Assembly (NCBI GenBank): GCA_963844965.1
Contig: CAWJQC010000004.1
Span: forward strand, 96,001-160,000
Source: an uncultured bacterium
GTDB taxonomy: Bacteria; Patescibacteriota; Minisyncoccia; UBA6257; 2-01-FULL-56-20
DNA length: 64,000 nucleotides
Direction: 5' to 3'
Below are positions 2,180-57,670 of this stretch, in pieces. Within the stretch, counting starts at the first letter, position 1. Each line of letters opens with the position of its first letter. The translations under genes and the position numbers were made by a program. Under the pieces are notes generated by a model. That model was not told where the DNA came from. It saw nothing but the letters and a program-made list of their open reading frames with translations, and did no database searches.

Positions 2180-3139
2180 CTACTGCTCCATATGACCGAC
2201 AAGGGTGCATGTATAAAAGTTACCAGTGCATTGGGATGAATTAGTAACATCCCAACAAGTTGAATAAGTCTCCAGCGCGCCACTACAAGGAGTGGTATTA
2301 GCGCATGAACTGTTGTAGTAACGAATATAAGTCATATACTGCGGGCAGAAGTAAATCGGCGTCCCGCCTGTAACTTTAAGAGTGCCGGGAATGATGACGT
2401 TGCCGTTTGCTAGAACCTGTATAGCTGCTCCGGTTGTAGTAGCTGTACCAGTATTCGGCATACTGCCGCCAATACCGACGTTGCCGGCATAGTTGATGAC
2501 TAATTTATTTGATTCTGCCGCACTAGGATAATTTCCCACCATAAGCATGGCGCCCTGATTAACATCGCCCACATCGAGCAGCACCGCATCCGCATTGGTC
2601 GTAGCCGCGGTGCCGTAGAACGTGCCGGTATTGGTATCCCTGTTCTGCTCGAACTGGGTGCCGTAATCACCGGTGTTATACAAGAACGAATAGGTGGGAT
2701 TACTAAAATCGCTGTACATCTCAAGGCCGGGGCCGGTACCGGCAGTATTTGAATATGCATAAAATTGATAGTTGGCGGGCGCCGCCGCTCCCACCCCGAT
2801 TCCGGAGGTGAATAAACCTCCTCCAGTTACCGTCAGTTTCTGGGTCGGCGCCGTATTCCCGATGCCGACGTTGCCGGAGGAATTCCAAATACCGGTGCCA
2901 GGCATCGTAACGTTGCCAGTAAAGGTCGGGCTCGCTAAAAGCGCCGCTCCGGTAACCTGCGCTACCCCGTAGTCACCAGATGCCGCCACCACGGCTCCGG
3001 TTCCGCCAAATACCGAGGTGACGCCGCCGCTCGGCCAAGCCGTGATGCAATTCGCCCCGGAGATGCAATATTGAGTGGCGTTTGCGGTAACCGTTGACGT
3101 ACAGAGCGTACCCTCCGCCTGAGTTTGTGAAATACCCAC
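2180..3139 (-). CDS. C-terminal part of tail-fibre-like surface protein 1 (Cys-rich C-terminus; joined to 2973-4625 by an apparent frameshift near 3125-3140)
   Basis: GNVGIGNTAP motif continues; ORF overlaps the upstream ORF in another frame. Confidence 0.5.
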   Translation of the reverse strand: MGISQTQAEGTLCTSTVTANATQYCISGANCITAWPSGGVTSVFGGTGAVVAASGDYGVAQVTGAALLASPTFTGNVTMPGTGIWNSSGNVGIGNTAPTQKLTVTGGGLFTSGIGVGAAAPANYQFYAYSNTAGTGPGLEMYSDFSNPTYSFLYNTGDYGTQFEQNRDTNTGTFYGTAATTNADAVLLDVGDVNQGAMLMVGNYPSAAESNKLVINYAGNVGIGGSMPNTGTATTTGAAIQVLANGNVIIPGTLKVTGGTPIYFCPQYMTYIRYYNSSCANTTPCSGALETYSTCWDVTNSSQCTGNFYTCTLVGHMEQ

Positions 3140-4625
3140 CGTAGCCGCCGGAGTTGGTGGCTAATCCATAAACTCCTACGCCGTTACCTGCCGCTGACTG
3201 TCCGGCAACCCCTACCCAGTAAGAAGCGCCGACCTGTCCGCCGAGAATCCCATTCGTTGTGGCGTTGCTATTATTTCCCGTTACCGAGCCGACCCATGAT
3301 GAATTGACGGCGCTCGTGAAACTGCCTACGCCAGCAACAACCAACGGATATGCCGGCGTCGTCGTCCCGATGCCGACGTTGCCGTTCGTGATGGAGAAAT
3401 ATGGACCACCCCCCATCCCAGTGCCAAGCGCCAAATTGAGGCCATAAGATTGTGACGTCAAATCAGCGTATGTAAATGCTCCGTTGCTGGTGGTGAACTT
3501 TATCCAATCTACGTTTGACCCGTTTGTATTGTCTAGCCGTAAGGTAGACGTACTTCCACTCTGAATATCAAGTTTTGCGACCGGCGCCGTGTTCCCGATG
3601 CCGACGTTGCCGTTGTTATTTATAAACAAGGCGGGTGACGCGCCGGATGAGTCAGAACCCTGAGTCAAAAAGGCCATTGGAGAACCGTTACTGCCGATCC
3701 GGGCCCAGTTCGCAACTGCTGCCGGTCCAAGCTGTAGCAAGGCATCGGTACCGTTAGATGTCAAGTCAAACTTGGCGAATTTTGACCCGTTCACGACATG
3801 CAACGTCGTTGCCGGCGACGCCGTCCCGATGCCGACGTTGCCGCCATATGCAAGCGTCATTATTTGGGAGTACCAACTGCTGGGGTTCTGATACCCAATC
3901 GTCAAGACCGAATTATCTGACGCTGGTGCAAAAACATACCCATTATTACTGCCAGCCATATCGCGGAGCTTGAAGGCTCCAAAGACATCAAGTGTATTTT
4001 GTGGTGACGGCGTCCCGATGCCGACCGAGCCCGAGAAATACCCGCCGCCGTAGACGGAGAGGGCCTGCGGCAAGTTGCTGGCGGAGGATGTGGTAACGCC
4101 CAGAGCGGAAGAAACAAACACACTGTGGGGGAACCCGTAGGGAACGCCGGAATCGGCCTCTAGAGAATTGAACACCGCGGGCGTGACATAGCCGGCGTTG
4201 ACGGTCCCGTTAAAATTGCCGTGGATCGTGCCGTTCACGTCAAGCTGGTAGCCAGGCGACGCCGTCCCGATGCCGACAGAACCGTCATTGCGCACGACAA
4301 GTATGGGCGACGAATTCGGATAAAGGATCTTCAATGTGTAATTCGCGGCATCAGCGGACGAAGAAGCAACGATGAGGAGTTTGGTTTCCGGCAGAGGCGT
4401 GGGCGTACCAACGCCCAGATTCCCAGCCGCATTAGTGCTTACCGCTCCCGAACCGAAACCGGGGGTGGGAGGAGGAGAGGCAAACGCGTAGTAGGTAGTA
4501 GGTAGTAGGTAGTAGGTAGTAGCGAGAATGACGAAAAACAAAACGTGCGGCGCAAAACTCGGACGCACACCGTAAAACTTGCGGCGGAGCTTTTGCTGTT
4601 TTTGGAACAAATCTGCGTCCATCAT
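2973..4625 (-). CDS. tail-fibre-like surface protein 1 (N-terminal part; paralog of 8555-11680)
   Basis: N-terminus about 95% identical to gene 8555-11680. KQQKLRRKF plus hydrophobic anchor, TTYYLLPTTYY, repeated NGNVGIGT(A/T)SP motifs. Block 3346-3850 is near-identical to 9464-9960. Confidence 0.6.
   Translation of the reverse strand: MMDADLFQKQQKLRRKFYGVRPSFAPHVLFFVILATTYYLLPTTYYAFASPPPTPGFGSGAVSTNAAGNLGVGTPTPLPETKLLIVASSSADAANYTLKILYPNSSPILVVRNDGSVGIGTASPGYQLDVNGTIHGNFNGTVNAGYVTPAVFNSLEADSGVPYGFPHSVFVSSALGVTTSSASNLPQALSVYGGGYFSGSVGIGTPSPQNTLDVFGAFKLRDMAGSNNGYVFAPASDNSVLTIGYQNPSSWYSQIMTLAYGGNVGIGTASPATTLHVVNGSKFAKFDLTSNGTDALLQLGPAAVANWARIGSNGSPMAFLTQGSDSSGASPALFINNNGNVGIGNTAPVAKLDIQSGSTSTLRLDNTNGSNVDWIKFTTSNGAFTYADLTSQSYGLNLALGTGMGGGPYFSITNGNVGIGTTTPAYPLVVAGVGSFTSAVNSSWVGSVTGNNSNATTNGILGGQVGASYWVGVAGQSAAGNGVGVYGLATNSGGYGGYFTNSGGGYALYVNGYRKRHSILHLRGELHHGLAERRRHLGIWRNRSRGGGIW
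4488..4521. repeat. (GGTAGTA)n heptamer array inside the signal-peptide region of surface protein 1
   Basis: gtaggtagtaggtagtaggtagtaggtagtag encodes TTYYLLPTTYY. Confidence 0.8.
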
Positions 4626-8554: not shown

Positions 8555-11500
8555 TCATTTCAGAAGAGCGTCAACTTTTTCTTGGAGCGCGGCGTTCTGC
8601 GCCTGAAGAGCGCTGATCTCTTGTTGCTGCTCCTTGATGGATTCTATCATCGGCGCGATAAGCCCAGTATAATCCAGACCAAGGGTTCCGCTCGCGTCAG
8701 TTTCCACCAACTGCGGGAAAACCGTCTGTACATTCTGCGCGGTTAAACCGAGCTGCTCTCCACTGCCCATCAGTTTTGTATCTTTCCATTCAAAGGAAAC
8801 CGGCGTCAGTAACTCAAGCTCCGCAAGCGAACCCGACAGTGGAACTATATTCTTCTTCAAACGCTCGTCGGAGCTATTTATCCACTGCCCAGCATTGTTT
8901 GTATACTCGCCGTGGGCTCCCTGAAAGTCATACGTACTGCCGGAACCATAGACGCCGATTGCAGCAGTTGAAAACACCCCATACCCTGCGGGATTACCGA
9001 AGTATCCAGCGGAACCGTTCGCGCCCGCGGTATCCGAATATCCTTCCACCCCAACCCCAGTACCAGCGTTGTAGCCATAGACGGCGGGAAGACCATTACC
9101 AGTACCGTAGCCATAGACCCCATACCCAGTCGCACCAGCAGTGCCATAGACACCATACATAGAGCCGGTGCCATAAATCCCTGCCCCAGCTTGCCCGGCG
9201 CCACCGACGCTTAATGTTGACGCCGGTGCCGTCGTCCCGATGCCGACGTTGCCGTTCGTGATGGAGAAATATGGACCACCCCCCATCCCAGTGCCAAGCG
9301 CCAAATTGAGGCCATAAGATTGTGACGTCAAATCAGCGTATGTAAATGCTCCGTTGCTGGTGGTGAACTTTATCCAATCTACGTTTGACCCGTTTGTTTT
9401 GTCTAGCCGTAAGGTAGACGTACTTCCACTCTGAATATCAAGTTTTGCGACCGGCGCCGTGTTCCCGATGCCGACGTTGCCGTTCGTGATGGAGAAATAT
9501 GGACCACCCCCCATCCCAGTGCCAAGCGCCAAATTGAGGCCATAAGATTGTGACGTCAAATCAGCGTATGTAAATGCTCCGTTGCTGGTGGTGAACTTTA
9601 TCCAATCTACGTTTGACCCGTTTGTATTGTCTAGCCGTAAGGTAGACGTACTTCCACTCTGAATATCAAGTTTTGCGACCGGCGCCGTGTTCCCGATGCC
9701 GACGTTGCCGTTGTTATTTATAAACAAGGCGGGTGACGCGCCGGATGAGTCAGAACCCTGAGTCAAAAAGGCCATTGGAGAACCGTTACTGCCGATCCGG
9801 GCCCAGTTCGCAACTGCTGCCGGTCCAAGCTGTAGCAAGGCATCGGTACCGTTAGATGTCAAGTCAAACTTGGCGAATTTTGACCCGTTCACGACATGCA
9901 ACGTCGTTGCCGGCGACGCCGTCCCGATGCCGACGTTGCCGGAACCTAAAATTGTCACGAGATCCGTTTTCGAAGAAGCGCCCGTTTTTTCACTAAACTG
10001 GAAAGCGGTGGTGGGATTGTTATAAACATTATAAAAATCAACTTCTGCATTTCCTCCCGTATAATTCCAACCGACGGCCAGACCACCAAGGCCATCACTC
10101 ACCGGTAAAGATTGCGTGTTATATGAAGTTTTCAGGAACCCACCCTCAACATCGAGCTTGTAACCTGGTGCCGCCGTCCCGATGCCGACCGAGCCCGTGA
10201 AATATCCGCCGCCGTAGACGGAAAGCGCCTGCGGACCTACGGCACTGCCCGAAGTGGCAACCGCCAACGAAGAGGAAACGACGACGCTGGCCGGGAAAAG
10301 ATAATTGCCCGTGCTGACAACGTTTGAACCGAAATACCCGGCCGCCACGTTGCTGGCGTTCACGGTGCCACCCGAAGAAGCGCAGTCGGAACCGGTGCCA
10401 GAAACAACGCCCGCAGCGCTTACGTGCAAACACTGGATAGAACCGCTGATTCCAGAAACAGTAAGGGTGTTGGCACTTGCGCCACTGCTGAAAGTTTGAA
10501 GCGCGGTCCAGGTGTTCGCATGTCCAAGATTCAATGCGGCGGACACGGCGCCCGCGGTTGGAGATATCGTTAGAGTTCCGACGCCGCTGTCGCTGACCGA
10601 GGTTACGCTGCCGCCTGCCGCAGACCAAGAAAGCGTGCCAGCGCCGTTGTTCGTGAGCACAGTACTTGCACCGCCTTGCGCGGCCGGCCAGGAATAAGTG
10701 ATACTGTTGATTTTCGCGATGTTGCCGTTATTGTCAACCTGGAATTGACTGCTCGCGCCGACGCTAAAAAGCGACGCTGGCCCCGTCGTCCCGATGCCGA
10801 CGTTGCCGCCCGCAGTTATCCTCATTCTCTCAGCAGCTCCAGCTGAAGTGTCAACCCTAAATATAAGACCATTCGTCGCAGCGCTCGCCTTGACATCTAT
10901 AAACCCTCCCCCAGAAGAATCACTACTGAAAAGTCTCATGCCGTTAACACCGACGCTCGTATCACCTCCAAAGAATAGGTTGCCGTTGACGTTGCCTGCT
11001 GCCATAGGCAAAAGCATATTTGACGTAAGCTGAAGCTGTTGAGTTGGGTTCGCCGTCCCGATGCCGACGTTGCCGCTGAAATACCCGCCGCCGTAGACGG
11101 AGAGGGCCTGCGGCAGATTGCTCGCGGTTGTCGTTGTGATTCCAAGACCGGAAGTGATAAACACGCTGTGGGGAAACCCGTAGGGAACGCCGGAATCGAG
11201 TTGGAGAGAGTTAAACACCCCGGGCGAGATGTTGCCGGCGCTTACGAGACCGCTCACGCTGCCATAAATGGACATGCCGCTGGCGAGATTCACACTGCCG
11301 GCATTAGTAAGATTTGAAGTGCCGATACCGACGGTGCCATCGTTGCGCACGACGAGAAGCGGAACAGCAGAGCCGGGCTGGACAACCTGCAGAGCGAAAT
11401 TTGAGCTGTCGGTTGACGAAGCCACAATCAGAAGCCTCACGTTGGCGGAGGGTGTTGACGTTCCAATGCCCAGATTGCCCGCGGCGTTAACGCTTATCGC

Positions 11501-11680
11501 TCCCGAACCGTAACCGGGAGTGGGAGGAGGAGAAGCAAACGCATAGTAGGTAGTAGGTAGTAGGTAGTAGGTAGTAGCGAGAATGACGAAAAACAAAACG
11601 CGCGGCGCAAAACTCGGACACGCACCGTAAAACTTGCGGCGGAGCTTTTGCTGTTTTTGGAACAAACCTGCGTCCATCAT
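8555..11680 (-). CDS. tail-fibre-like surface protein 2 with peptidase S74-type C-terminal intramolecular chaperone domain
   Basis: C-terminus has SSDERLKKNI...LTAQNVQTVFPQLV...coiled coil; repeated NGNVGIGT motifs; N-terminal anchor plus TTYYLLPTTYY. Confidence 0.7.
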   Translation of the reverse strand: MMDAGLFQKQQKLRRKFYGACPSFAPRVLFFVILATTYYLLPTTYYAFASPPPTPGYGSGAISVNAAGNLGIGTSTPSANVRLLIVASSTDSSNFALQVVQPGSAVPLLVVRNDGTVGIGTSNLTNAGSVNLASGMSIYGSVSGLVSAGNISPGVFNSLQLDSGVPYGFPHSVFITSGLGITTTTASNLPQALSVYGGGYFSGNVGIGTANPTQQLQLTSNMLLPMAAGNVNGNLFFGGDTSVGVNGMRLFSSDSSGGGFIDVKASAATNGLIFRVDTSAGAAERMRITAGGNVGIGTTGPASLFSVGASSQFQVDNNGNIAKINSITYSWPAAQGGASTVLTNNGAGTLSWSAAGGSVTSVSDSGVGTLTISPTAGAVSAALNLGHANTWTALQTFSSGASANTLTVSGISGSIQCLHVSAAGVVSGTGSDCASSGGTVNASNVAAGYFGSNVVSTGNYLFPASVVVSSSLAVATSGSAVGPQALSVYGGGYFTGSVGIGTAAPGYKLDVEGGFLKTSYNTQSLPVSDGLGGLAVGWNYTGGNAEVDFYNVYNNPTTAFQFSEKTGASSKTDLVTILGSGNVGIGTASPATTLHVVNGSKFAKFDLTSNGTDALLQLGPAAVANWARIGSNGSPMAFLTQGSDSSGASPALFINNNGNVGIGNTAPVAKLDIQSGSTSTLRLDNTNGSNVDWIKFTTSNGAFTYADLTSQSYGLNLALGTGMGGGPYFSITNGNVGIGNTAPVAKLDIQSGSTSTLRLDKTNGSNVDWIKFTTSNGAFTYADLTSQSYGLNLALGTGMGGGPYFSITNGNVGIGTTAPASTLSVGGAGQAGAGIYGTGSMYGVYGTAGATGYGVYGYGTGNGLPAVYGYNAGTGVGVEGYSDTAGANGSAGYFGNPAGYGVFSTAAIGVYGSGSTYDFQGAHGEYTNNAGQWINSSDERLKKNIVPLSGSLAELELLTPVSFEWKDTKLMGSGEQLGLTAQNVQTVFPQLVETDASGTLGLDYTGLIAPMIESIKEQQQEISALQAQNAALQEKVDALLK
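9236..9691. repeat. 228-bp (76-aa) tandem duplication inside surface protein 2 (single copy in paralog at ~3361-3590)
   Basis: Two copies differ by 1 nt (N/K); unit NGNVGIGNTAPVAKLDIQSG...GGGPYFSIT. Confidence 0.85.
11544..11577. repeat. (GGTAGTA)n heptamer array in signal-peptide region of surface protein 2
   Basis: gtagtaggtagtaggtagtaggtagtaggtagtag. Confidence 0.8.
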
Positions 11681-22306: not shown

Positions 22307-25104
22307 ATGCCCGAAGAATTTCCTACGCGCTACGACATAAAGGAAGTTGAAACGAAAATCTACGACCTATGGGAAAAGTCTGGGTTTTTCAATCCCGATG
22401 TTTGCGTTGAAAAAGGCGCGACGAAACCGGACGCCGAACCTTTTTCCATCGTCCTGCCGCCGCCGAACGTAACCGGCACCTTGCACATCGGCCACGCCTT
22501 TGAGGACGCGATCCAAGACACCGTTGTCCGCTACGAGCGCATGCGCGGCAAGCGGACGCTCTGGGTTCCCGGGACCGACCACGCCGCCATCGCCACGCAG
22601 GCGAAAGTGGAGGAACTTCTGCGCAAGGAAGGGAAAACGAAATACGACCTCGGCCGGGAGGAATTCCTGCGGCGCGTGAACGAGTTCGCCAAAAATTCTC
22701 ATGACATCATAATCCGCCAGATAAAACGGCTCGGCGCTTCGCTTGATTGGGGCCGCGAGGCATATACGCTTGATGAAAAACGAAATCTCGCCGTCCGCAC
22801 CGCCTTTAAAAAAATGTACGACCTCGGCCTCATTTACCGCGGCGATCGTATCGTGAACTGGGACCCGAAGCTACAGACCACCGTCTCCGACGACGAGGTG
22901 GAATGGATAGACGAAACGACGCCTTTCTACTATCTGAAATATGGGCCGTTCGTCATCGGCACGGCAAGACCGGAAACGAAGTTTGGCGACAAATACGTCG
23001 TCATGCATCCGGACGACGAACGCTATAAAAAATATAAACACGGCGAAAAGATAGAACTTGAATGGATAAACGGGTCGGTCACGGCAACAATTATCAAGGA
23101 TAAGGTCATTGACGTGAATTTCGGCACGGGCGTGATGACAATCACACCATGGCACGACATGACGGACTTTGACATCGCGGAAAGGCATCGCCTGGATAGG
23201 GAGCAGATAATCGACCTGCGCGGCAAACTGCTGCCCATCGCCGGCGAATTCGCCGGAACGCCTATCGCCAAGGCCCGGCCGCTCATTATTGAAAAACTAA
23301 GAACAAAGGGTCTCGTGGAAAAGATTGACGAACATTACGCCCATCGCGTCGCCACGAACAGCCGCGGCGGCGGCCTCATCGAACCGCAGATCCTCAAACA
23401 ATGGTTCGTCAAGGTAAACTCCAAGTTCCAAATCCCAATTTCCAACCTAAAAGGGATAAAAAGCGGCCAAGAGGTGACGCTCAAGGAACTTATGAAAAAA
23501 GTCGTGGAGTCGGGGCAAATAAAAATCATACCCGGACAGTTTGAAAAAATTTACTATCATTGGATAGACAACCTGCGCGACTGGTGCATCTCGCGCCAGC
23601 TTTGGTTCGGGCACAGAATTCCGGTGTGGTATTGCCTCGCCTGCGGCGAGCCGCAAGTTGAACCGAAAATAAAATCGCGATGGTTCCTGGTGCGGCACGG
23701 AGAAACAGACTGGATCAAAGAGGGGCGGCACATGGGACATAAAGAGGTTCCCATGAATGAAACCGGCAAGCAGCAAGCGATGGTAGCCGGCGAACGGCTC
23801 GCAAACGAAAAAATTGATCTGATAATTTCTTCCACCACCATGCGCTGCAAAGAAACCGCCGAAATTATCGCGAAAAAACTGGGTGTCAAAATTATTTTTG
23901 ACGAACGTCTGCGCGAGCGCGGCAGTGGCGAATGGGAAGGACTGCTGCATGCGGAAATCAGGGAAAAATACAAACCTCTGGAGCAAAAATATGGACCGAG
24001 GAGTGGAACAAGCGCGCGCGCTATGAATTCAAACCGCCGGGAGGAGAAAATTGGCTGGAACTTGAAAAGCGCGTAATTCAATCGTTCAAAGAGCACAAAC
24101 TTCGATACGCCGACAAAAATATCGCGATTGTCACCCACGCCGGTCCGATCAGGATCCTGGAAAAAAATCTTAAAAACAAATCATTTGAAGAAGTGGTGGG
24201 ATTAATACCCGAGAATGCCGAGATTGCTAAGCTTTCAATCGCAACTGCTTCCTGTAAAAAATGTGGCAGTGATACTTACGAGCAGGATCCCGATACTCTG
24301 GATACCTGGTTCTCCTCCGCTATGTGGACGTTCTCAACTCTCGGCTGGCCTGAAAAAACCTCCGACCTCAGAACCTACCATCCAACCTCTTTGATGGCGC
24401 CGGGGTATGAAATCCTTTTCTTCTGGGTGGCGCGGATGATACTCATGAGCGGCTGTCTTTTGGGAGAAATCCCCTTCCGCACGGTTTATCTCCACGGCAT
24501 TGTGCGCGACAAGCAGGGCAAGAAATTCAGCAAATCCAGCGGTCACGCGCTTGACCCCCTGGAACTAGCCGACAAATACGGAGCGGACGCCCTGCGCATG
24601 GCTTTAATTGCCGGAGCGGCGCCGGGAAACGACGTGCAATTTGACGAGAATAGGGTCAAGGGCTACAGGAATTTTTCAACCAAGATATGGAACGTAGCGC
24701 GGTTTGTTTTACTAAACAAACCGCCGCAGACAGACGCTGACAAGACGCGGACAGCCGCGGACATTGCTGGCCGACCAGAGATAAAGGAGTTTGAGGCAAT
24801 TAAATCGGAAATAACGAAACATCTTGATGAATACGAACTGCATCTCGCAAGCGAAAAGATTTACCACTACTTCTGGCACACTTTCGCCGACAAAATAATT
24901 GAACAGGAAAAAGCCAACCTGCGGACAGCCGCCGACAAGACGCAGACAGACGCAGACATTGCGAGACGGGCAGAATCCTATGCCCTACTGGGATACATTC
25001 TCGTCGGTTCGCTTAAACTACTCCACCCTTTCATGCCGTTCGTAACAGAAGAGATTTATCAAAAATTTGAACTAAATAAGCTTCTCTTGACCGAAAAATG
25101 GTAA
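22307..25104 (+). CDS. valS: valyl-tRNA synthetase with inserted histidine-phosphatase domain; apparent frameshift at ~23985-24000 splits it into two ORFs
   Basis: HIGH (TLHIGHAF) and KMSKS-like (KFSKSSGH) motifs, DTWFSSAMWTFSTLGWPE; ORFs 22307-24076 and 23932-25104 overlap out of frame at the A5 run caaaaatatgg. Confidence 0.8.
23672..24250 (+). other. phosphoglycerate-mutase-family histidine phosphatase domain inserted between the CLAC and CKKC zinc-knuckle cysteines of ValRS
   Basis: RWFLVRHGETD (RHG catalytic His), ...RERGSGEWEG..., FKPPGGENW, VTHAGPIR motifs. Confidence 0.6.
24724..24780. repeat. GCAGACAGACGC oligo-repeat in frame in valS (QTDADKTRTAADIAGRP)
   Basis: ccgcagacagacgctgacaagacgcggacagccgcggac. 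Confidence 0.6.
24919..24965. repeat. GCGGACAGCC/GCAGACAGACGCAGAC oligo-repeat in frame in valS (LRTAADKTQTDADIARR)
   Basis: ctgcggacagccgccgacaagacgcagacagacgcagacattgcg. Confidence 0.6.
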
Positions 25105-28084: not shown

Positions 28085-29686
28085 CTAAAATTTTCGGGCT
28101 GTAGTATAGCGGCAGTACGCACCCTTGGGGTGGGTGTAGACCGGGTTCGACTCCCGGCAGCCCGACATAACGGAACTTGCATCAACTTTTTCAAAATCAA
28201 CGCGCTCGCTTCGCTCGCTGTCTTTATGCACGAGGGGCAAATGGAGAAGCAAATCCGTAACTACTTTCCATTCGTCTTTCCAATCCCAAAAAATTTCCCT
28301 GTCCCGCAGGCGGCGGTTCGTTCCGATTTTCCCCGCAAAGGATTTTATGGCGTCGAATTCTTCGGACGAAGCCAGTTTTGCCGCGTGAAACGCGGATATA
28401 ATCCATTCCCGCAATGGTTCGATCCAATAGTTTCCCCTCCGCCCGCAATCATCATTCTGCTTGGACAAGGAAACTTTAGTTTTGATAAGCTCGTCCTTTT
28501 TGGCAAGATAGATTTCTTTTTCAATTGAGCCGTCCAAAAAGGCGTTCACGAGCTTGTCTAATTTCTGCTCGGTTTCCTTGAGTTGGGTTTCGAGATTGCG
28601 GGCGGAATTCTCCGAAGATTGGATGCCTTCTTTTTCCCACGCTTCCACTTGAACCAGCATTTTCTCTTTCCAATCTTCGGGGATGGCGACCTCCGAGATT
28701 TTCTCTTTGAGCTGTTGCACGAGTAAATCTTCGCGCAGATAGCTTTGTGAACACGGGCCAAGCCGTTTCGTACAGCGATAATACTTGTAGAGGCCGCCGT
28801 TCCCTTTCGCGTATTGGGCGGTGATGGCCGCGCCGCACTCGCCGCAGGTGAGCAATCCGGTGAACGGGAAATAATGACGCTTCTTGGAGTGGCGCGGCTT
28901 GGCTTTGTTCCTCAAAACCTCCTGCACTTTCTTGAAGGTCGCCTCGGGAACTATCGGCAGGAAATTGCCGACATAGCTCTCGCCGTTGTGTTTTATCACT
29001 CCGAGATAGGCGGAGTTCGTGAGCATCCGTTGGAGCGTGGCCTTCGGCATGGGATTTCCCGTACCGCTCACGATGCCGAAAAACTGGAAGCGGGCGGCGA
29101 GCGTCTTTAGGGTGTGCCTCCCTTCGGCGTATTCCTCAAAAACTTTTCTGATGATTCTCGCCCGCACGGGGTCGGGTTCGATGTTCCGCGTCTTGGGATT
29201 GTTGAGGTAACCGAAGGGGGCTTTGGTCGGCCACTCGCCGCGCCGCAATTTCTGCCGGATGCCGCGCTTCACGTTCTCGGAAAGGTTATCGCTGTAATAC
29301 TTGGACTGGCCGAAGGCGACCTGCAACATGAAAAGTCCCTGCGGGGTCGGCTCAAACCAGAACGTCGGGAACTTCAGCGAGGCAATCTTCTGGGTATCGA
29401 TGAGGTAGATGATTTGGCCGCCGTCTATGGAGTTGCGAGCCAATCGGTCGGGATGCCACGCCAATATGCCGACGGGTTCTTTGCTCTCGTGAATTTTCTT
29501 GATAAGGTCGCCGAACACTTCCCTGCCCGGACTTTTCGCGCTCTTGCTCTCGATGAAGGTCTCGATAATCTTTATATGTTCCCGTTTAGCGAACTCGGCA
29601 AGCTCCGCGAGTTGGGCTTCAATGCTCATCACCTGCCGTTCCTCGTCCTCGGTGGACTTGCGGGCATAGAGGAAATATGGGGTCAT
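28085..29686 (-). CDS. large serine recombinase (integrase/invertase type); 3' end reads through the tRNA-Pro 3' end
   Basis: N-terminal YARKSTEDEERQVMSIEAQ resolvase catalytic domain, recombinase domain, zinc ribbon CGECG...YYRC, coiled coil. Last ~27 codons are the reverse complement of tRNA-Pro. Alternative C-terminus ...SQLLNAVRTYFIENPRD is preserved at 30050-30260. Confidence 0.8.
   Translation of the reverse strand: MTPYFLYARKSTEDEERQVMSIEAQLAELAEFAKREHIKIIETFIESKSAKSPGREVFGDLIKKIHESKEPVGILAWHPDRLARNSIDGGQIIYLIDTQKIASLKFPTFWFEPTPQGLFMLQVAFGQSKYYSDNLSENVKRGIRQKLRRGEWPTKAPFGYLNNPKTRNIEPDPVRARIIRKVFEEYAEGRHTLKTLAARFQFFGIVSGTGNPMPKATLQRMLTNSAYLGVIKHNGESYVGNFLPIVPEATFKKVQEVLRNKAKPRHSKKRHYFPFTGLLTCGECGAAITAQYAKGNGGLYKYYRCTKRLGPCSQSYLREDLLVQQLKEKISEVAIPEDWKEKMLVQVEAWEKEGIQSSENSARNLETQLKETEQKLDKLVNAFLDGSIEKEIYLAKKDELIKTKVSLSKQNDDCGRRGNYWIEPLREWIISAFHAAKLASSEEFDAIKSFAGKIGTNRRLRDREIFWDWKDEWKVVTDLLLHLPLVHKDSERSERVDFEKVDASSVMSGCRESNPVYTHPKGAYCRYTTARKF
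28095..28165 (+). tRNA. tRNA-Pro (anticodon GGG)
   Basis: Acceptor CGGGCUG/CAGCCCG, anticodon loop uuGGGgu, T-loop GGGTTCGACTCCC. Confidence 0.7.
28163..28321. repeat. IR-A left arm (recombinase 3' coding end), inverted copy at 30050-30208
   Basis: ~159 bp identical in inverted orientation; inner boundary at the tRNA-Pro 3' end. Confidence 0.85.
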
Positions 29687-30580: not shown

Positions 30581-30719
30581 CTCCCCCAACCCCTCCTTTG
30601 GGGCGCGCCGAGGGCGGTTGCGGCAACCCTTGGAACAGGGTATGGTTGAGATATCCACGCATAGGCGATGAAGCTCGCCGCAACCGCCCTTAGGGGCTGA
30701 TAGCTTCTATCTCAAAAAG

Positions 30720-43536: not shown

Positions 43537-44442
43537 TTACCGAAGCACGTTGTGCGGAAAATTTTCAAATCGACGGATGACGAAGCGGGGGACAGAATGC
43601 AAAAACTGGAGATAGGCGCGGAGATAATGTTTTTTTATGATCATCTCGCTGTTGTGCTCAACTATGAGCTTGAAAATCGTGTCAAGCGTCCGCCGATAAT
43701 GAGCGAGGTCTTCGCGCCGAATCGCGCCTTGCCATGTTTTCGTAAGATTTTCAGTCAGAGGCAGAGTCGCTTCAACTGAAAAAAGAGATTTCGTGTGGAG
43801 AATGCTGTAAATTTCGTGCGCGTCCGGATCGCCGATGATGGGATATTTCCCTTTGTAGCTGCAGAGGATGCGGGGAAACGGGTCATATCCGGTTTTTTCC
43901 TCAACGAGAAGCGGCGCCTTCACGTGTTCCTCTTCTATCTCGCTCTCCAATTTTCTGATCTGCTTTTTTCCATAGTAATCAACCACAAAATGTTTCGGAT
44001 GCGGAACAATAAGGACCATCTCCCGCTTTTTCGCGATATAATCCAAAAATTCCGTTTCCGTGAGATTTCCAAAAATCTCGTCGTTCTTGAGAATTGTGTA
44101 ATTGGTCCTCTTTTTGACGTAGTCGCGGAGATTGTCGTGGTCACCGAACGTTAAAAGTTCACGCCGGGCCACCAGTTTGAAAACCGCGTCAACGAACCGC
44201 TTTTTCAATTTCCACTGTATCCCAGGAATGACAAGAACTTTTTCGGTGCTGTAGGCCAACGCTTCTTTCATCGTTATCGGAATCACATTATGGTCCGAGA
44301 TTCCGAGAACCGCGCGCTCGCCGCCGGGCAGGTTGCGTTCAAGATACTCAACGTACCTCTCAATCGGCACCGCCGAATCGTGCGAGCGGTCGGAGTGAAC
44401 GTGAAATTCCAGAAGCAGCCGCGGTTTCATCGTAATTGTCAT
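43537..44442 (-). CDS. PHP-domain metal-dependent phosphoesterase
   Basis: EFHVHSDRSHDS ... HP motifs. Confidence 0.6.
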   Translation of the reverse strand: MTITMKPRLLLEFHVHSDRSHDSAVPIERYVEYLERNLPGGERAVLGISDHNVIPITMKEALAYSTEKVLVIPGIQWKLKKRFVDAVFKLVARRELLTFGDHDNLRDYVKKRTNYTILKNDEIFGNLTETEFLDYIAKKREMVLIVPHPKHFVVDYYGKKQIRKLESEIEEEHVKAPLLVEEKTGYDPFPRILCSYKGKYPIIGDPDAHEIYSILHTKSLFSVEATLPLTENLTKTWQGAIRREDLAHYRRTLDTIFKLIVEHNSEMIIKKHYLRAYLQFLHSVPRFVIRRFENFPHNVLR

Positions 44443-46379
44443 TCAATAACTCCGCGGATGCGCCTCACGCCCGCGCCGACCGCCTCTTCTTTCGCGATCC
44501 TGAAACGCCCTATTTCTCCGGTGTGTTCCACGTGCGGGCCGCCACAAAATTCTATAGAGAACGCCTTATCGAACTGCGGACTTTCCGGCGTAGCCGATTT
44601 CGGTCCAACGGAATAGACCGAGACGCGGTCGGGGTACTTCTGCCCAAACTCGTGCTCGGCGCCCAGCTTCTCCGCCTCTTCGCGGGCTATTTCACTACGG
44701 ATAACGGGTAAATCTTCGGCGATTTTTTCATTCACGATACGCTCAACTTCTTTCTTTTGTTCTTCGGTCATCTTTTCATTGTGGACAAAATCCATCCGCA
44801 AACGTTCACTCGTGATATTACTCCCCCGCTGTTTCACCTCTGGTCCAAGCACAATTTGCAGGGCCTTCAATAGCAAATGATGCGCAGTATGCAACCGCGT
44901 CGTCTTTTCGGAATGGTCGGCAAGCCCACCTTTAAATGTACCGGCGGATGCTGTACGGGATAGTTTTTGATGCCCCGCAAAAGATTTTTCGAACCCAGCT
45001 TCATCAACTTTTATCCCAACTCTTTCCGCCTCATCCTTAATGTAGTCTATGGGCAAACCATACGTCGAAAAAAGAATGAAGGCTTTATCCCCAGGAATAA
45101 CGCCATCGGATACCGATATTCGGATGACTCTCTCTAACTCTGAACGCGATTTTAGAATTTCGGTGAATTTTCCAGCTTCCCTCAAAACAACTTCTTTAAT
45201 CTTGTCTTCTTTTCCCACTAACTCCATATAGAATTTTATTGCATTCGAAATAATAGAATTAATAACAAAATGCGTTTTCTCATCCCATCCCATTCGCGGC
45301 CTCGAATCTAATGGAATAATTGCATCTTTTTTGGTAAGGCTGATAACATGAAAAATTGCTCTACGGAGAATGCGCCGCAAAACATATCCTCGCTCTTTAT
45401 TGCTTGGTTCTACGCCATCACCAATCAAATTTATGGCGGCCCGTAAATAATCTAGGATTATTCTCTTTTTTCGGACATCCTCACTTTCTTTATATTGATG
45501 AAGTGGTTCGGCCATAGCTTGGAATACGTCGATTTTGAAGATGTCGGGGTCGTTATTCGCCGCCGCGGTAATGCGCTCAAGTCCGCCGCCGAAATCTACG
45601 TTTCGCTGCGGAAGTTTTTCAAAAGAGCCATCCTCTCTTTTTTTGAATTCCATAAAAACGGAGTTCCCTATTTCAAGAAAGCGTCCACAATCACAGTTCG
45701 GATGGCACTTTTTCCCAAACTTAGTATCGTGCGACGTACCAAAATCGTAGAAAACTTCCGAATCCGGTCCGCCCGGCTCGCCCGCAGGCATCTCTGAGGG
45801 CATGCCGGCGCGGCTCCACCAATTCTTTTTTACTCCGTAGCCGAAAATGCGTTCGTCGGTCCGCATACCCTTCTCGCTTGCGTCTTCTTCGGTATTCATC
45901 TCGGCATATTTCGCAGAAATTTTCTTTTCGGCAAAAAGTTTCTGCCAGATTTCAACGGAATCATTATCGCGCTCAACGCCTTCTCCTCCTGAAAACACCG
46001 TTACATAAAGATTCTCCGGTTTGAGGCCAACGCCGCCTTCTTCCGGTTTATTCGTCAAAAATTCAAAGAACCAGCGAAGTTGGTCCCGTTTCCAATAATC
46101 TCCGAGCGACCAGTTGCCGAGCATCTCGAAAAAAGTCGTATGCCGATTGTCGCCTACTTCGTCTATGTCTTCGGTGCGAAAACTTTTTTGCGAGTTAGCG
46201 ACCCGCTTTCCTTCTGGATGCGGTGCGCCCAAAATATACGGCATGAGCGGCTGCATACCGCTTCCCGTAAAAAGCGTCGTCGGATCATTTTCTGGCACAA
46301 GCGAAGCCGAAGGAATAATCGCGTGCCCGCGCGCCTTGAAAAACTCCAGAAACTTTCGGCGGATTTCTTCAGAAGTCAT
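44439..46379 (-). CDS. alaS: alanyl-tRNA synthetase, short form (646 aa: catalytic plus editing domains, no C-Ala domain)
   Basis: ...FTGSGMQPLMPYILG...FFEMLGNWSLGDYWK...HTAHHLL...CGGPHVEHTGEIG. Confidence 0.8.
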   Translation of the reverse strand: MTSEEIRRKFLEFFKARGHAIIPSASLVPENDPTTLFTGSGMQPLMPYILGAPHPEGKRVANSQKSFRTEDIDEVGDNRHTTFFEMLGNWSLGDYWKRDQLRWFFEFLTNKPEEGGVGLKPENLYVTVFSGGEGVERDNDSVEIWQKLFAEKKISAKYAEMNTEEDASEKGMRTDERIFGYGVKKNWWSRAGMPSEMPAGEPGGPDSEVFYDFGTSHDTKFGKKCHPNCDCGRFLEIGNSVFMEFKKREDGSFEKLPQRNVDFGGGLERITAAANNDPDIFKIDVFQAMAEPLHQYKESEDVRKKRIILDYLRAAINLIGDGVEPSNKERGYVLRRILRRAIFHVISLTKKDAIIPLDSRPRMGWDEKTHFVINSIISNAIKFYMELVGKEDKIKEVVLREAGKFTEILKSRSELERVIRISVSDGVIPGDKAFILFSTYGLPIDYIKDEAERVGIKVDEAGFEKSFAGHQKLSRTASAGTFKGGLADHSEKTTRLHTAHHLLLKALQIVLGPEVKQRGSNITSERLRMDFVHNEKMTEEQKKEVERIVNEKIAEDLPVIRSEIAREEAEKLGAEHEFGQKYPDRVSVYSVGPKSATPESPQFDKAFSIEFCGGPHVEHTGEIGRFRIAKEEAVGAGVRRIRGVIE

Positions 46380-54145: not shown

Positions 54146-57100
54146 TTACGGCAATTGCGGGATCTGAAGATTCAGAGAAGGGCACATGAGCATGTTGATC
54201 CACCACCTCGTTGTCTTGTAGACGTAACCTGTGGCGATGGTGTTGCTCTTAAGACCGTGCGGTACCCACGGCTCAAGCACCTTAATGTTGTACTTCAACT
54301 GAAATTGTATCACGGCGTTGTACGTCAAACTTCCATAATATCCGGTGACGGGAAGGTTAATCCCCAAATTCTGATTTAGGAATTCCTGAAGTTTTTTCAC
54401 TTCACTTGGATCGTTGTTCGCTCCAAGCTTGATGTAATCTCTGAGGTACATGCCGCAGCTCACTGAAGCGCCGAGTACTTGTCCGCCTGTTTGTCCGCCC
54501 AAAAGCTGAATTGAATCATCGGCAGTCCCGATATCAGTATTGGTTACGGAGCGGTACTTAACATACACGGTCTCCGTACCCTGTGTGGACCCGATAACCC
54601 ACGGCTTAGTGGTAACGTACGGCTCCCATGTGGCGCCGGCGAAATCCGGAGTGTTGGAGAGTTCCATCGTGTACGCGCCTGTTCCGTAAAGGGACAGCGT
54701 CACGCTCGTGGTCGCGGTTGAAGGAGCTCCACTATCAATGGAGATGCTATATGCCGATCCACCGCCGCCACCCAAAACCGTAGAGCCTCCTCCGCCACCT
54801 CCGCCACCGCCTCCACCACAATTTGACGTGCAGGGTGCGGCTTGAACCGCAATCGAAACTGAAGACGAATTATTGGCGGGGTCATCTACAAGTGAATCCA
54901 ATTCCTTGATCGTCGCGGTATTTGTGAGCGTTGTCCCCGCAGTCTGCGGGAGAACCGTCACTGAAATAACGAGTGTTGCCGTGGCGTTCGGTGAGATTGT
55001 TCCGACGCTCCATCCGATGGTAGCGCCCATACTGGAAGTACCCTGTGATGAAGTTATGGAGTTTACGCTCAAGCCGATCGGGAGGATATCGTTTACTACA
55101 ACGTATGTGGAAGTCACGGAACCGAGGTCGGTCGCGGTTAGGGTATATGTTATCGTATCGCCGCCTTTCGGATTTGCATTATCCACCGTCTTTGTGATCG
55201 CGACGTCCGCCGTGTTATTTGCTATTGCCGTTGGCGTGAAGGTCACAGAGCATGTCGTGCTCGCGGAAAGCGTCCCTGCGCAACCGCTGGAAGTCGCAAC
55301 CACGTAGTTGGAACTCGCCGCCGTAACGCCATAGAGGTCATTTGTAGGAAGAACGAACAATCCCGTGCCGTTACCGGTGGACGTTGACTGCGTTGCGGAA
55401 GCCGTTGAATCCAAAACCGTGATCGTCGCGGTATCGCTCGCGTTGAGGCCGCTCACGGAAACCGAGAGTGTGCTTGTCGTGTTTAGGGCAGGCGATCCTC
55501 CGGTCCCCACCAATACAGTTGCGTCTGACGAATTGTTCCCCAAATTAGGATCGGTGGTTGAAGAATTCTCACCGACCGAAGCTGTATTGGTTATCGTCCC
55601 CGTGGCGTTCACCACTGCCGCGATCGCCAATGTCGCCGTAGAGCTCACAGGCATGTCGCCTATCATCCAGCTTCCTGTTGAACTCACGTAGCTTCCTTCG
55701 GAATTGGAAGAAGTGGCATTCAGGAAAGTGAGACCGGAAGGCAGAGTGTCGGTAGCTACTACGCCGGTTGACGTAGAAGGGCCGAGCGCCGTCACGGTAA
55801 GCGTATAGTGAACGGTGCCGCCTTCAACGGTTGAAGTCACGTCGGCCACTTTAGCGATGGAGATGTCGGCGGAAGGAATGGTTGAGGTGGGAGTCGGAAC
55901 CGGCGCGCCGCATGAAGAACCGGCTTCGGTCACGGTGAGCTTGTAAAGCAAACCGGCCGGATTTGACTGAGCCGTAGAGCTCGCCAGACCAAAGTTCGTC
56001 ACCGTAAGCGCCAGATGATTCACACCCTGGTGCACCGCGGATAACGCGTCAACGTGCCCCTCGTTCTCGAGGAAATAGTTGAATTCACCAGAGTTGAGAG
56101 CCACGTCCGTCCCATTCAGCGCCGCATCGTACGAATTATCTGCCGCGATATCAAGATGGGCCGCGAGAGGACCGCCAGTCACCATAAAGTCCTTAGTGAA
56201 TGTGAATGTCTGGTTATGCGCCGGGTCAGTCACGTAAGGCGTCGCCCAAATCCACGTCGCGCCAGGAATTGAGGCGGTCCAACGCGAATCGTAGGGCGTC
56301 GCGACGAGCGCCGCCGAGCTGCCGTTTACCATGTTCGTCGCATCGCTCACGATGACATCCGAACAAGTAGCAGCCGGCGCAGGCGTCGCGGTTATAGACG
56401 ATGTCGCATTGTTGTTTGTCGTGTTCGGATCGGTGGTTGAAGAATTCTCACCGACCGAAGCTGTATTGGTTATCGTCCCCGTGGCGTTCACCACTGCCGC
56501 GATCGCCAATGTCGCCGTAGAGCTCACAGGCATGTCGCCTATCATCCAGCTTCCTGTTGAACTCACGTAGCTTCCTTCGGAATTGGAAGAAGTGGCATTC
56601 AGGAAAGTGAGACCGGAAGGCAGAGTGTCGGTAGCTACTACGCCGGTTGACGTAGAAGGGCCGAGCGCCGTCACGGTAAGCGTATAGTGAACGGTGCCGC
56701 CTTCAACGGTTGAAGTCACGTCGGCCACTTTAGCGATGGAGATGTCGGCGGAAGGAATGGTTGAGGTGGGAGTGGAGGTTGAAATCGCGCCGAGGAACCG
56801 ATTGAGAACGATAAGCTGCCGCGTGGGCCGCGATGCCTCAAGATAGATGTCTCCGTCGGCGTTCGTATTCCTTAGACCATCGTTCGTCGGATCGTTGTCA
56901 AACAATTGCCCGCTGTAGGAGAAAAAATCGGATGTCGCATTTGCGGTAACTGTGTCCTGGTCGTTGTAAAGCGGCATTGCCCAGTTGTAGCTCGAGCTCG
57001 CAATCCGCTCCTCGCCATAGTAATAATGGCCAAGCGCGAGATTGTTGTAAGTCACGCACTGGGCGTTCGCCGCGGACGCGCCGAAAAGCTCTGCGTTCGC

Positions 57101-57670
57101 GGAAAGTGGGGTCGTGAAAACCGCGGTAGGCAGTAATCCTGCCGCAGCGGCCGTTGTTGAGGGCACGGAAACGAAGCCGGGAACCGTAAAGGTCTGCCCC
57201 GGAAACGCCGTGCCGTCCACGACCGTGCCGCTCGCATTCACAATCGCCTTGCAGACGCTTATAGACCCCGTCGTTGGCGCGGGAGGAACGAAGGTATCGG
57301 TGATGACGCAGGTCTTCGCGTCTTTTCTTTCCATCGTTCCCGAACAGTCAGCGGAAAAACCAGCAGTGTAATCCGAACTTGAAGCCTGACTAACGTGGTA
57401 CGTTCCGGTTCCCATTGAGACCAAGGTTCCGGAAGCGGAACCCTGGAACGTTGACGGAGAAGGATTGTCGCCGGAAACCATCACTGTAAAATCGGAGGCG
57501 GATTTGGTGCCGCCACCGGTGTTCACGACGTTCACGACAACTGTAAGCTTGGCGCAAGAATCAGAATCCTCGCCGCAACTGCATGCATATGTTTTTGTCG
57601 CCGCGAGGATCGCCGACCAGAGAAGAATTCCAGTAATAATCAGACCTGTAATCGCAATCTTTCTTTTCAT
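54146..57670 (-). CDS. giant cell-surface protein with DUF11 repeats, poly-Gly tract and C-terminal peptidoglycan-binding domain
   Basis: Signal peptide; repeated ...ADISIAKVADVTSTVEGGTVHYTLTVTALGPSTSTGVVATDTLPSGLT... (DUF11); C-terminal ...LQEFLNQNLGINLPVTGYYGSLTYNAVIQFQ (PG_binding_1-like). Confidence 0.65.
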   Translation of the reverse strand: MKRKIAITGLIITGILLWSAILAATKTYACSCGEDSDSCAKLTVVVNVVNTGGGTKSASDFTVMVSGDNPSPSTFQGSASGTLVSMGTGTYHVSQASSSDYTAGFSADCSGTMERKDAKTCVITDTFVPPAPTTGSISVCKAIVNASGTVVDGTAFPGQTFTVPGFVSVPSTTAAAAGLLPTAVFTTPLSANAELFGASAANAQCVTYNNLALGHYYYGEERIASSSYNWAMPLYNDQDTVTANATSDFFSYSGQLFDNDPTNDGLRNTNADGDIYLEASRPTRQLIVLNRFLGAISTSTPTSTIPSADISIAKVADVTSTVEGGTVHYTLTVTALGPSTSTGVVATDTLPSGLTFLNATSSNSEGSYVSSTGSWMIGDMPVSSTATLAIAAVVNATGTITNTASVGENSSTTDPNTTNNNATSSITATPAPAATCSDVIVSDATNMVNGSSAALVATPYDSRWTASIPGATWIWATPYVTDPAHNQTFTFTKDFMVTGGPLAAHLDIAADNSYDAALNGTDVALNSGEFNYFLENEGHVDALSAVHQGVNHLALTVTNFGLASSTAQSNPAGLLYKLTVTEAGSSCGAPVPTPTSTIPSADISIAKVADVTSTVEGGTVHYTLTVTALGPSTSTGVVATDTLPSGLTFLNATSSNSEGSYVSSTGSWMIGDMPVSSTATLAIAAVVNATGTITNTASVGENSSTTDPNLGNNSSDATVLVGTGGSPALNTTSTLSVSVSGLNASDTATITVLDSTASATQSTSTGNGTGLFVLPTNDLYGVTAASSNYVVATSSGCAGTLSASTTCSVTFTPTAIANNTADVAITKTVDNANPKGGDTITYTLTATDLGSVTSTYVVVNDILPIGLSVNSITSSQGTSSMGATIGWSVGTISPNATATLVISVTVLPQTAGTTLTNTATIKELDSLVDDPANNSSSVSIAVQAAPCTSNCGGGGGGGGGGGSTVLGGGGGSAYSISIDSGAPSTATTSVTLSLYGTGAYTMELSNTPDFAGATWEPYVTTKPWVIGSTQGTETVYVKYRSVTNTDIGTADDSIQLLGGQTGGQVLGASVSCGMYLRDYIKLGANNDPSEVKKLQEFLNQNLGINLPVTGYYGSLTYNAVIQFQLKYNIKVLEPWVPHGLKSNTIATGYVYKTTRWWINMLMCPSLNLQIPQLP
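55548..55893. repeat. ~346-bp exact internal repeat (second copy 56427-56773) inside the DUF11 protein gene
   Basis: Identical DNA over the whole length, encoding a duplicated DUF11 module. Confidence 0.85.
56427..56773. repeat. second copy of 346-bp internal repeat
   Basis: See 55548-55893. Confidence 0.85.

Follow-up and report, generated by a model that had tools for sequence, protein, structure and literature searches.

A predicted phosphatase domain nested in the zinc knuckle of valyl-tRNA synthetases from Patescibacteria

Why would a valyl-tRNA synthetase carry a phosphatase inside one of its loops? The question is raised by the valS gene of an uncultured bacterium from the Patescibacteriota, which lies within a 64,000-nucleotide stretch of DNA (positions 96,001 to 160,000 of contig CAWJQC010000004.1, assembly GCA_963844965.1) that we will call the window. 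The valyl-tRNA synthetase (ValRS) that it encodes seems to contain a histidine phosphatase between the two CxxC pairs of its zinc knuckle. As deposited, the gene also has a frameshift within the phosphatase. We will argue that this appears to be a genuine and inherited nested-domain enzyme, with the zinc-knuckle hairpin of the CP3 subdomain, just past the CP2-CP3 linker, as the surface-loop site of the insertion. We will also argue that, most likely, the frameshift reflects a homopolymer whose length is wrong in the assembly, or else a minority variant.

The synthetase and the domain nested within it

As deposited, valS is two overlapping open reading frames (ORFs), at 22307-24076 (589 amino acids, and already on file in NCBI and ENA, from a contig of 216,488 bp) and at 23932-25104 (390 amino acids; we will call this ORF B). 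The two ORFs overlap by 145 nucleotides. If one A is added to the run of five A's at 23985-23989 (gagCAAAAAtatgg), then there is a single ORF that encodes 932 amino acids. This frame-corrected protein scores above the cut-offs of both of NCBIfam's models for valS (844 bits versus a cut-off of 704 for NF004349, and 794 bits versus a cut-off of 612 for TIGR00422). Pfam identifies tRNA-synt_1 (E = 3e-125, residues 17-454) and Anticodon_1 (E = 6.5e-20), with His_Phos_1 in between. Both of the class I motifs are present: LHIGH at residue 60 (22484-22495) and, at residue 740 (24523-24537), the KMSKS-type motif KFSKS, which is a variant that is common to the close relatives P0125 and P0137. With a 73-sequence alignment as input, the AlphaFold2 model of the corrected protein has a mean predicted local distance difference test (pLDDT) of 90.0 and a predicted template modeling score (pTM) of 0.87. 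The top fold match in PDB for the whole model is the ValRS from T. thermophilus (1GAX; E = 6e-56; TM-score of 0.74 when normalized to 1GAX). To judge from these matches, the host is a class Ia ValRS.

By homology to isoleucyl-tRNA synthetase (IleRS), the zinc-binding hairpin is part of CP3, the subdomain that follows CP2 and precedes the second Rossmann half (PMC7191050). Both CxxC pairs of the hairpin are retained in 55 of the 71 full-length ValRS that have the insert. Pfam does not find the C-terminal coiled-coil tRNA arm (PF10458) in the window's ValRS, which ends with ...LLLTEKW. Among the homologs, the arm is present only in Moraniibacteria-type proteins of about 1060-1080 amino acids.

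The part of valS that encodes the anticodon-binding domain contains two in-frame GAC-rich repeats of 54 nucleotides each (24726-24779 and 24921-24974, + strand), which are 80% identical and encode PQTDADKTRTAADIAGRPE and LRTAADKTQTDADIARRAE. The ValRS of relatives have other low-complexity peptides at both positions. GCAGAC-type runs that resemble these repeats are also found at 1217-1270 and at about 16626.

The match to His_Phos_1 (PF00300, branch 1 of the histidine phosphatases) has E = 9.8e-47 in the whole protein, or E = 4.5e-48 if the segment is excised, and covers positions 2-182 of the 194 positions of the profile. At 159.6-163.9 bits, it is far above the gathering cut-off of 21.7. The segment contains RHGET (463-467), a glutamate motif RLRERGSGEWEG (with E537), PPGGE (577), and VTHAG (with H611). 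The full catalytic core is present: the histidine of RHG, two arginines of the phosphate pocket, the glutamate that is the proton donor, and the second histidine. The closest solved relatives include PhoE (1EBB/1H2E, E = 1e-22), the phosphoserine phosphatase PspA (4IJ5, E = 2e-20), glucosyl-3-phosphoglycerate phosphatase, and CobC. All of these are small-molecule phosphatases. The alignment to PhoE is unbroken across the site of the frameshift. In the AlphaFold2 model, residues 451-650, which include the guest domain, have pLDDT values of 92-98. The exception is a lineage-specific loop (residues 551-570, with values of 83 and 63), which includes the frameshift site.

These results agree with the original prediction, which was made from the DNA sequence and placed a histidine phosphatase of the phosphoglycerate mutase family between CLAC and CKKC, named the same motifs, and suggested a search with the His_Phos_1 model as a check. 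It had also described the domain as complete. The predicted fold is indeed complete, and so is the catalytic core, but the domain is not entirely canonical: residue 470, which should be the asparagine of the phosphate-pocket motif RHGxxxN, is isoleucine. The asparagine is present in 98% of the nested domains and in 99% of free-standing domains. The only other nested domains that lack it are those of P0172, P0356, and P0295, and P0172 is the closest relative of the window's ValRS, by similarity of the host, that has a His_Phos domain.

We also compared the domain to models for subfamilies of phosphatases. The best match in NCBIfam is to alpha-ribazole phosphatase (ribazole_cobC, TIGR03162), at 136-140 bits, which is below the cut-off of 162.9. 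The second-best phosphatase match is to NF005567, and it involves the phosphatase half of this model for the mycobacterial RNase H/acid phosphatase. The score for PspA is 94-98 bits versus a cut-off of 350, and the models for phosphoglycerate mutases (dPGM) are far under their cut-offs. Because the domain scores below the cut-off for every subfamily, we cannot place it in any of them, and so we cannot assign a substrate to it.

Table: Predicted features of valS, in window coordinates. Residue numbers refer to the frame-corrected protein.
Feature	Positions	Strand	Evidence or remarks
valS, ValRS gene with a nested phosphatase domain and one frameshift	22307-25104	+	ORFs; 932 amino acids once one A is added
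N-terminal part of ValRS, residues 1-442: first Rossmann half with HIGH, CP1 editing domain, CP2, and CP2-CP3 linker NLRDWCISRQLWFGHRIPVWY	22307-23632	+	Pfam tRNA-synt_1
CLAC, first CxxC pair of the CP3 zinc knuckle, residues 443-446	23633-23644	+	Aligns with WYCEDC of T. thermophilus ValRS 1GAX
Nested His_Phos_1 domain (histidine phosphatase branch 1), residues 460-646	23684-24243	+	Pfam PF00300
Putative catalytic R463/H464	23693-23698	+	
Atypical I470	23714-23716	+	
Putative catalytic R513	23843-23845	+	
Putative catalytic E537	23915-23917	+	
A5 homopolymer, one base short of the homologs' frame; frame 2 to frame 1	23985-23989	+	Upstream frame stops at 24074-24076
Putative catalytic H611	24136-24138	+	
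CKKC, second CxxC pair of the CP3 zinc knuckle, residues 650-653	24253-24264	+	Aligns with CEAC of 1GAX
C-terminal part of ValRS: second Rossmann half (QDPDTLDTWFSS), KFSKS, and anticodon-binding domain	24265-25104	+	Pfam tRNA-synt_1 and Anticodon_1; aligns to 1GAX residues 368-591

Distribution, loss, and replacement of the nested domain

The nested phosphatase is found, within one intact ORF, in over 100 independent ValRS from Patescibacteria (Kaiser-, Lipton-, Colwell-, and Moraniibacteria). When the query was the full-length corrected protein, about 65 of the top 120 cluster representatives were intact proteins of 900-1080 amino acids that contain both PF00133 and PF00300, with 53-65% identity and 99-100% coverage. 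These sequences come from NCBI, JGI, ENA, and Logan, and the named taxa include Candidatus Kaiserbacteria (also in UniRef), Colwellbacteria, Liptonbacteria, Paceibacterota, Moraniibacteriota, and Minisyncoccia. More divergent cases came from a profile search of 1.84 billion representatives.

Overall, when we mapped the domains of all of the proteins that we fetched, 153 of them joined His_Phos to parts of a class Ia synthetase. In most of these proteins, the guest is at the knuckle, and some have tandem copies. Others have the guest in a different loop: around ValRS residues 376-388 or 212-214, past the GWP motif, or past roughly residue 150 of the C-terminal part. The host is not always ValRS: all seven of the long proteins that we tested score above the cut-off for IleRS (TIGR00392). 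These proteins (P0329, P0343, P0356, P0374, P0381, P0262, and P0272) have 1100-1470 amino acids and contain one or two guests, at the site that is equivalent to the knuckle and at a further site.

The E-values, together with the presence of the same architecture in over 100 independent assemblies, exclude a chance resemblance. We also give practically no credence to the idea that the insert is a misassembly, or a chimera of a phosphatase gene with valS. Nothing beyond the odd layout suggests it, and the junctions (WYCxxC...KSxWFxVRHGET and ...CxxCGxDxYEQDPDTLDTWFSS) recur in more than 100 independent assemblies from the four sources, which refutes it. Also, the window's gene order of valS, PrsW, and HSP20 recurs in three unrelated contigs (L001-L003). 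The original prediction had considered the fusion to be unusual, and had given a misassembled insert as one way in which it might be wrong. The fusion is unusual in that ValRS in general lack the insert, and many close relatives have just 8-30 residues at the site, but it is far from singular. As judged from these distributions, the nested layout is typical of a lineage, that is, broad within one clade and absent elsewhere. The original prediction would also have been refuted if the segment were present in ValRS broadly, and so this objection applies by half.

Two other ideas were rejected. There is no match to Hint or intein families in Pfam, and the junctions are KIKS/RWFLV and SIATAS/CKKC, so we do not consider it to be an intein or another type of protein-splicing element. 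Fragments from a search with the insert and short flanks had suggested that the gene might be systematically split, and inspection of the contigs ruled this out. In L002, valS is cut by the end of the contig, and the frame is open upstream through SKWFVVRHGETDW. In L001 and L003, valS and neighboring genes are broken at several places, which is typical of error-rich assemblies.

Across 126 near-complete nested domains, the putative catalytic residues are nearly invariant (97% for R463, 100% for H464, 99% for R513, 98% for E537, and 100% for H611), and these columns are equally conserved in 186 free-standing domains. The conservation of the catalytic residues in the nested copies shows that the phosphatase chemistry is under selection. 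For 66 of 75 nested ValRS domains, the nearest neighbor is another nested ValRS domain. The divergence of the window's phosphatase is ordinary, given the distance of its ValRS (mean residual of -2.0, standard deviation of 3.6, rank 17 of 65), so there is no evidence from rates that it is decaying.

Nevertheless, the guest is often lost or replaced. Of 164 ValRS homologs with both flanks of the site, 104 have His_Phos, a short loop is all that is present in 54 (8-30 residues, except for one of 68; with or without the cysteines), and 6 have a long gap with no detected domain. (Three of the six have an alternative guest and two have a diverged His_Phos.) In a tree of the ValRS body, we found at least 15 changes in the state of the insert among 123 sequences, although the sequences were collected with a query that has the insert, and so are a biased sample, and the tree is a simple neighbor-joining tree. 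The qualitative result, that the guest is frequently lost or swapped, is robust. In the 13-leaf clade that includes the window, seven sequences have no insert, three have another guest, and three have His_Phos. The ValRS body that is closest to the window's (P0125, 85% identity) has a different guest of about 130 amino acids at the same site; the next closest (P0135, 78%) has neither a guest nor the knuckle; and the nearest ValRS with His_Phos is at just 72% body identity. Because the guest has repeatedly been lost or replaced, aminoacylation does not require it.

Two other types of guests, of about 110-130 amino acids, occur at the same loops of ValRS, sometimes in tandem with the phosphatase (P0125, P0137, P0141, P0172, P0168, P0175, P0266, P0278, and P0259). 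For example, P0172, whose 90% cluster includes Liptonbacteria OGZ02330.1 (UniRef A0A1G2CNI6), has an alternative guest and the phosphatase in tandem. Among nine members, the alternative guests have only weak matches in Pfam: to ASCH for three of them (best E = 4e-4), to DUF3850 for two, and to End_beta_barrel (a small beta-barrel) for five. An AlphaFold2 model of the P0125-type guest, from an alignment of nine sequences, has a pLDDT of 44.7 and is unusable.

The frameshift and the possible roles of the domain

The window's valS is not a single uninterrupted reading frame, and the original prediction was right that the shift in the A5 run is a feature of the deposited sequence. The shift is not found in any relative: all of the homologs (over 100, including some with 64-65% overall identity) are in frame across the site. 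We found no other stops or indels in the 2.8 kb of valS. The exact flanks of the site had 0 matches when we scanned metagenome contigs for DNA from the same strain. The codons at the site are CAA AAA TAT, which do not include a canonical slippery heptamer (X_XXY_YYZ), and we found no stimulatory RNA structure downstream (for the fold of 100 nucleotides, z = -1.29, and 20 of 200 shuffled sequences were as good). The start codon (ATG) of ORF B is within coding sequence that is GC-rich, unlike the AT-rich or TATAAT-like contexts that precede other genes in the window.

Most likely, the assembly either has the wrong length for this homopolymer or represents a minority variant. It is less likely that the frameshift is a very recent lesion, and a real frameshift that has been fixed is less likely as well, because the downstream half of ValRS is essential. 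The original prediction had proposed that valS might be expressed as two polypeptides. A Lys-tRNA could re-pair at -1 on the A5 run, and the two ORFs do overlap, as might be expected for a programmed -1 recoding site or for a ValRS that is deliberately split into two subunits. However, no homolog shares the shift, and there is no heptamer, no RNA structure, and no start context for ORF B, so such a design is unsupported. We consider it to be very improbable, and the relatives read straight through. Alternatively, the insert might be a decaying relic and the frameshift might be real, so that valS is broken or is expressed as two fragments or by rare slippage (one Lys-tRNA could re-pair at -1 on A_AAA_A), as an early stage of the loss of the guest that occurred in sister lineages. 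This would fit with the frameshift in the deposited sequence; with I470 in place of a nearly invariant asparagine; with the lack of the same asparagine in P0172 (from the Liptonbacteria cluster), which is the only close relative by ValRS body that has His_Phos; and with the repeated loss or swapping of the guest in the immediate clade. Also, split class Ia synthetases can function, as in the LeuRS of Aquifex or the complementation of fragments of IleRS. On the other hand, the five core catalytic residues are intact, the divergence is ordinary for the host's distance, and the rest of the gene has no lesions. Furthermore, the loss of the guest would have to be in frame, because the frameshift removes the essential C-terminal half of ValRS. 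The region upstream of ORF B is within the gene and is GC-rich, which is unlike the real starts in the window, and within the 64 kb of the window, there is no second valS. We think that a decaying relic is unlikely.

Near the start of the window, the ORFs at 2180-3139 and 2973-4625 (- strand; 319 and 550 amino acids) overlap by 166 nucleotides and encode repetitive, GNVGIGT-type sequence that resembles tail fibers. This region (2180-4625) may contain a second frameshift; across the junction, the alignments to homologs are low-identity matches of repeats. As for gene starts, the window's genes lack Shine-Dalgarno sequences and have AT-rich leaders, and in many cases a TATAAT-like box lies just a few bases upstream of the start codon (for example, upstream of 22307, or for the genes at 28085-29686 and 57985-59805, both on the - strand). 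This context suggests that initiation across the window may be leaderless or otherwise independent of Shine-Dalgarno sequences.

So what might the phosphatase do? The original prediction suggested that it could have a moonlighting or regulatory function. The explanation that we favor, with moderate confidence, is that it is an autonomous phosphomonoesterase, similar to PhoE or CobC, whose substrate is a small metabolite or nucleotide. It would be housed in a surface hairpin that tolerates insertions, and it would be co-expressed with an essential gene. The activities of the host and the guest would be chemically independent. ValRS would charge tRNA-Val as usual, and the guest would act on a small phosphorylated metabolite or a nucleotide via a phosphohistidine intermediate at H464. 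The guest would benefit by being expressed along with an essential gene, in a genome that is very small, and the tip of CP3 would be merely a permissive docking loop. The one-base shift in the A5 run would not be part of the design.

The main alternative is that the phosphatase acts in cis on the acceptor end of the tRNA, before charging, and removes a 3'-phosphate, a 2',3'-cyclic phosphate, or a 3'-pyrophosphate that was added by a toxin. In ValRS and IleRS, the CP3 loop would then serve as a docking platform for accessory enzymes that act on tRNA. This would fit with the position of the insert, which begins 1-20 residues past the CP2-CP3 linker (RDWCISRQLWFG). The homologous linker of yeast IleRS is part of the binding pocket for the 3'-CCA of the tRNA (PMC7955072). 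A role at the tRNA end would also fit with the recurrence of the guest, which both ValRS and IleRS have at the equivalent site and which is also found in other loops and as tandem copies, and some of the other guests might be PUA-like, given their weak matches to ASCH or DUF3850. Furthermore, the pTM of the model suggests that the guest might have a defined orientation instead of being floppy. Enzymes that pyrophosphorylate the CCA end of tRNAs do exist (the toxSAS enzymes; PMC11559606), so a counter-activity would be useful. However, the nearest relatives of the guest are small-molecule phosphatases. None of the members of the histidine phosphatase branch that we found in this study acts on RNA ends, and to our knowledge no other member does. 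The nested domains are not basic (their mean net charge is -1.3, versus -2.7 for free domains, which is a small shift that says little about RNA binding), and the guest is often lost without replacement. The assignment to ASCH is weak, and the model of that guest has a pLDDT of just 45. We consider this alternative to be unlikely, if a little less so than a decaying relic. More broadly, the ValRS and IleRS of Patescibacteria might use CP3, along with two or three further surface loops, as an exchangeable platform for accessory enzymes whose targets are the acceptor end of the tRNA or nucleotides that the synthetase releases. On this platform, the phosphatase would clear blocking 3'-phosphates or pyrophosphates from tRNA in cis, and the ASCH-like guests would be alternative modules. 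This is more doubtful than either.

Several observations weigh against an autonomous phosphatase in a permissive hairpin, or against the way that we account for the frameshift. A small-molecule substrate is suggested by family resemblance only. That the same guest is in two paralogous synthetases, in several loops, and in tandem copies suggests a functional tie and not passive hitch-hiking, and so does its location next to the linker that lines the pocket for the CCA end. Given I470, the activity of the window's copy may be reduced. The losses that imply a dispensable guest were counted in the biased sample described above. Finally, the other long ORFs in the window appear to be intact, which argues against an assembly that is generally full of errors.

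Other features of the window, and known systems

The window contains another nested-domain protein, a RecG-like helicase (15-1913, + strand) with a PD-(D/E)XK_3 nuclease domain (residues 186-297) nested between DEAD and Helicase_C; this ORF begins near the edge of the window. There is also a synthetase for alanine (AlaRS; 44439-46379, - strand; tRNA-synt_2c and tRNA_SAD), which at 646 amino acids is shorter than a typical bacterial AlaRS. A large serine recombinase (28085-29686, - strand; Resolvase, Recombinase, and Zn_ribbon_recom) overlaps a tRNA-Pro(GGG) (28095-28166, + strand), and this overlap may be the edge of an integrated element. At 30655-30716 (+ strand) there is a fluoride riboswitch (Rfam RF01734, 47.8 bits versus a gathering score of 34). 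Two large proteins are of surface type: one of 1041 amino acids (8555-11680, - strand) with a C-terminal Peptidase_S74 (endosialidase chaperone) domain, and one of 1174 amino acids (54146-57670, - strand) with three DUF11 repeats and a peptidoglycan-binding domain.

The nested phosphatase has been present in UniRef and other public databases since about 2016 (for example, as A0A1G2CNI6), where it goes by names like "class I tRNA ligase family protein" or "hypothetical protein." Because NCBI gives many of these proteins only the former name, automated surveys may miss ValRS in these genomes. One indel in a homopolymer, as in the window, is enough to split an essential marker gene. In targeted searches of the full text of the literature, we did not find any description of a histidine phosphatase, or of an ASCH-like guest, in the CP3 of ValRS or IleRS. 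In a survey of domain insertions from 2026, synthetases come up only because they host editing domains (PMC13114784). The layout is common in Patescibacteria and apparently lacks a description in the literature.

Aminoacyl-tRNA synthetases are much studied, and extra domains in them usually signal editing, regulation, or signaling. A phosphatase with a conserved core, in both ValRS and IleRS and across a radiation of ultra-small, host-dependent bacteria, is a lead for a second activity that is tied to the charging of tRNA. At a minimum, it is a clear case from nature of how domains can be nested, and turned over, as modules within an essential gene. If the guest does act on tRNA bound to the synthetase, then this would be a tRNA repair or anti-toxin activity that is integrated into a synthetase, for which there is no known precedent.

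How does the window's ValRS compare to known systems? It resembles the ValRS of T. thermophilus (1GAX) and of other bacteria in having HIGH, a KMSKS-type loop, the CP1 editing domain, CP2, the CP3 zinc knuckle, and the anticodon-binding domain. However, there are about 200 residues between its CxxC pairs, instead of about 20 in 1GAX, and its clade lacks the C-terminal coiled-coil tRNA arm of bacterial ValRS in general. The guest resembles PhoE (from Geobacillus), CobC, and PspA (from Hydrogenobacter) in its fold, its length of about 190 amino acids, and its set of catalytic residues, but those proteins are free-standing, while the window's domain is nested in a loop of another enzyme and lacks the asparagine of the pocket.

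Nested domains are already known from class Ia synthetases (PMC13114784), with the CP1 editing domain as the classic example. A variant of IleRS with an added GNAT domain is already recognized by NCBIfam (NF040702), whereas the guest that we describe is a histidine phosphatase in CP3. The architecture thus appears to be a variant of synthetases with nested accessory domains, and it is more general than the original prediction supposed. Another parallel, and a precedent for a phosphatase domain that works independently of its partner, is the mycobacterial RnhC (Rv2228c/MSMEG_4305), in which, in a restricted lineage, a CobC-like His_Phos_1 domain is joined to a nucleic-acid enzyme. In that protein, the RNase HI and the CobC-like acid phosphatase are functionally dissociated in vivo (PMC7466739). 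RnhC is an end-to-end fusion, with a different host enzyme and from a different phylum, while the phosphatase in the window is nested within its host.

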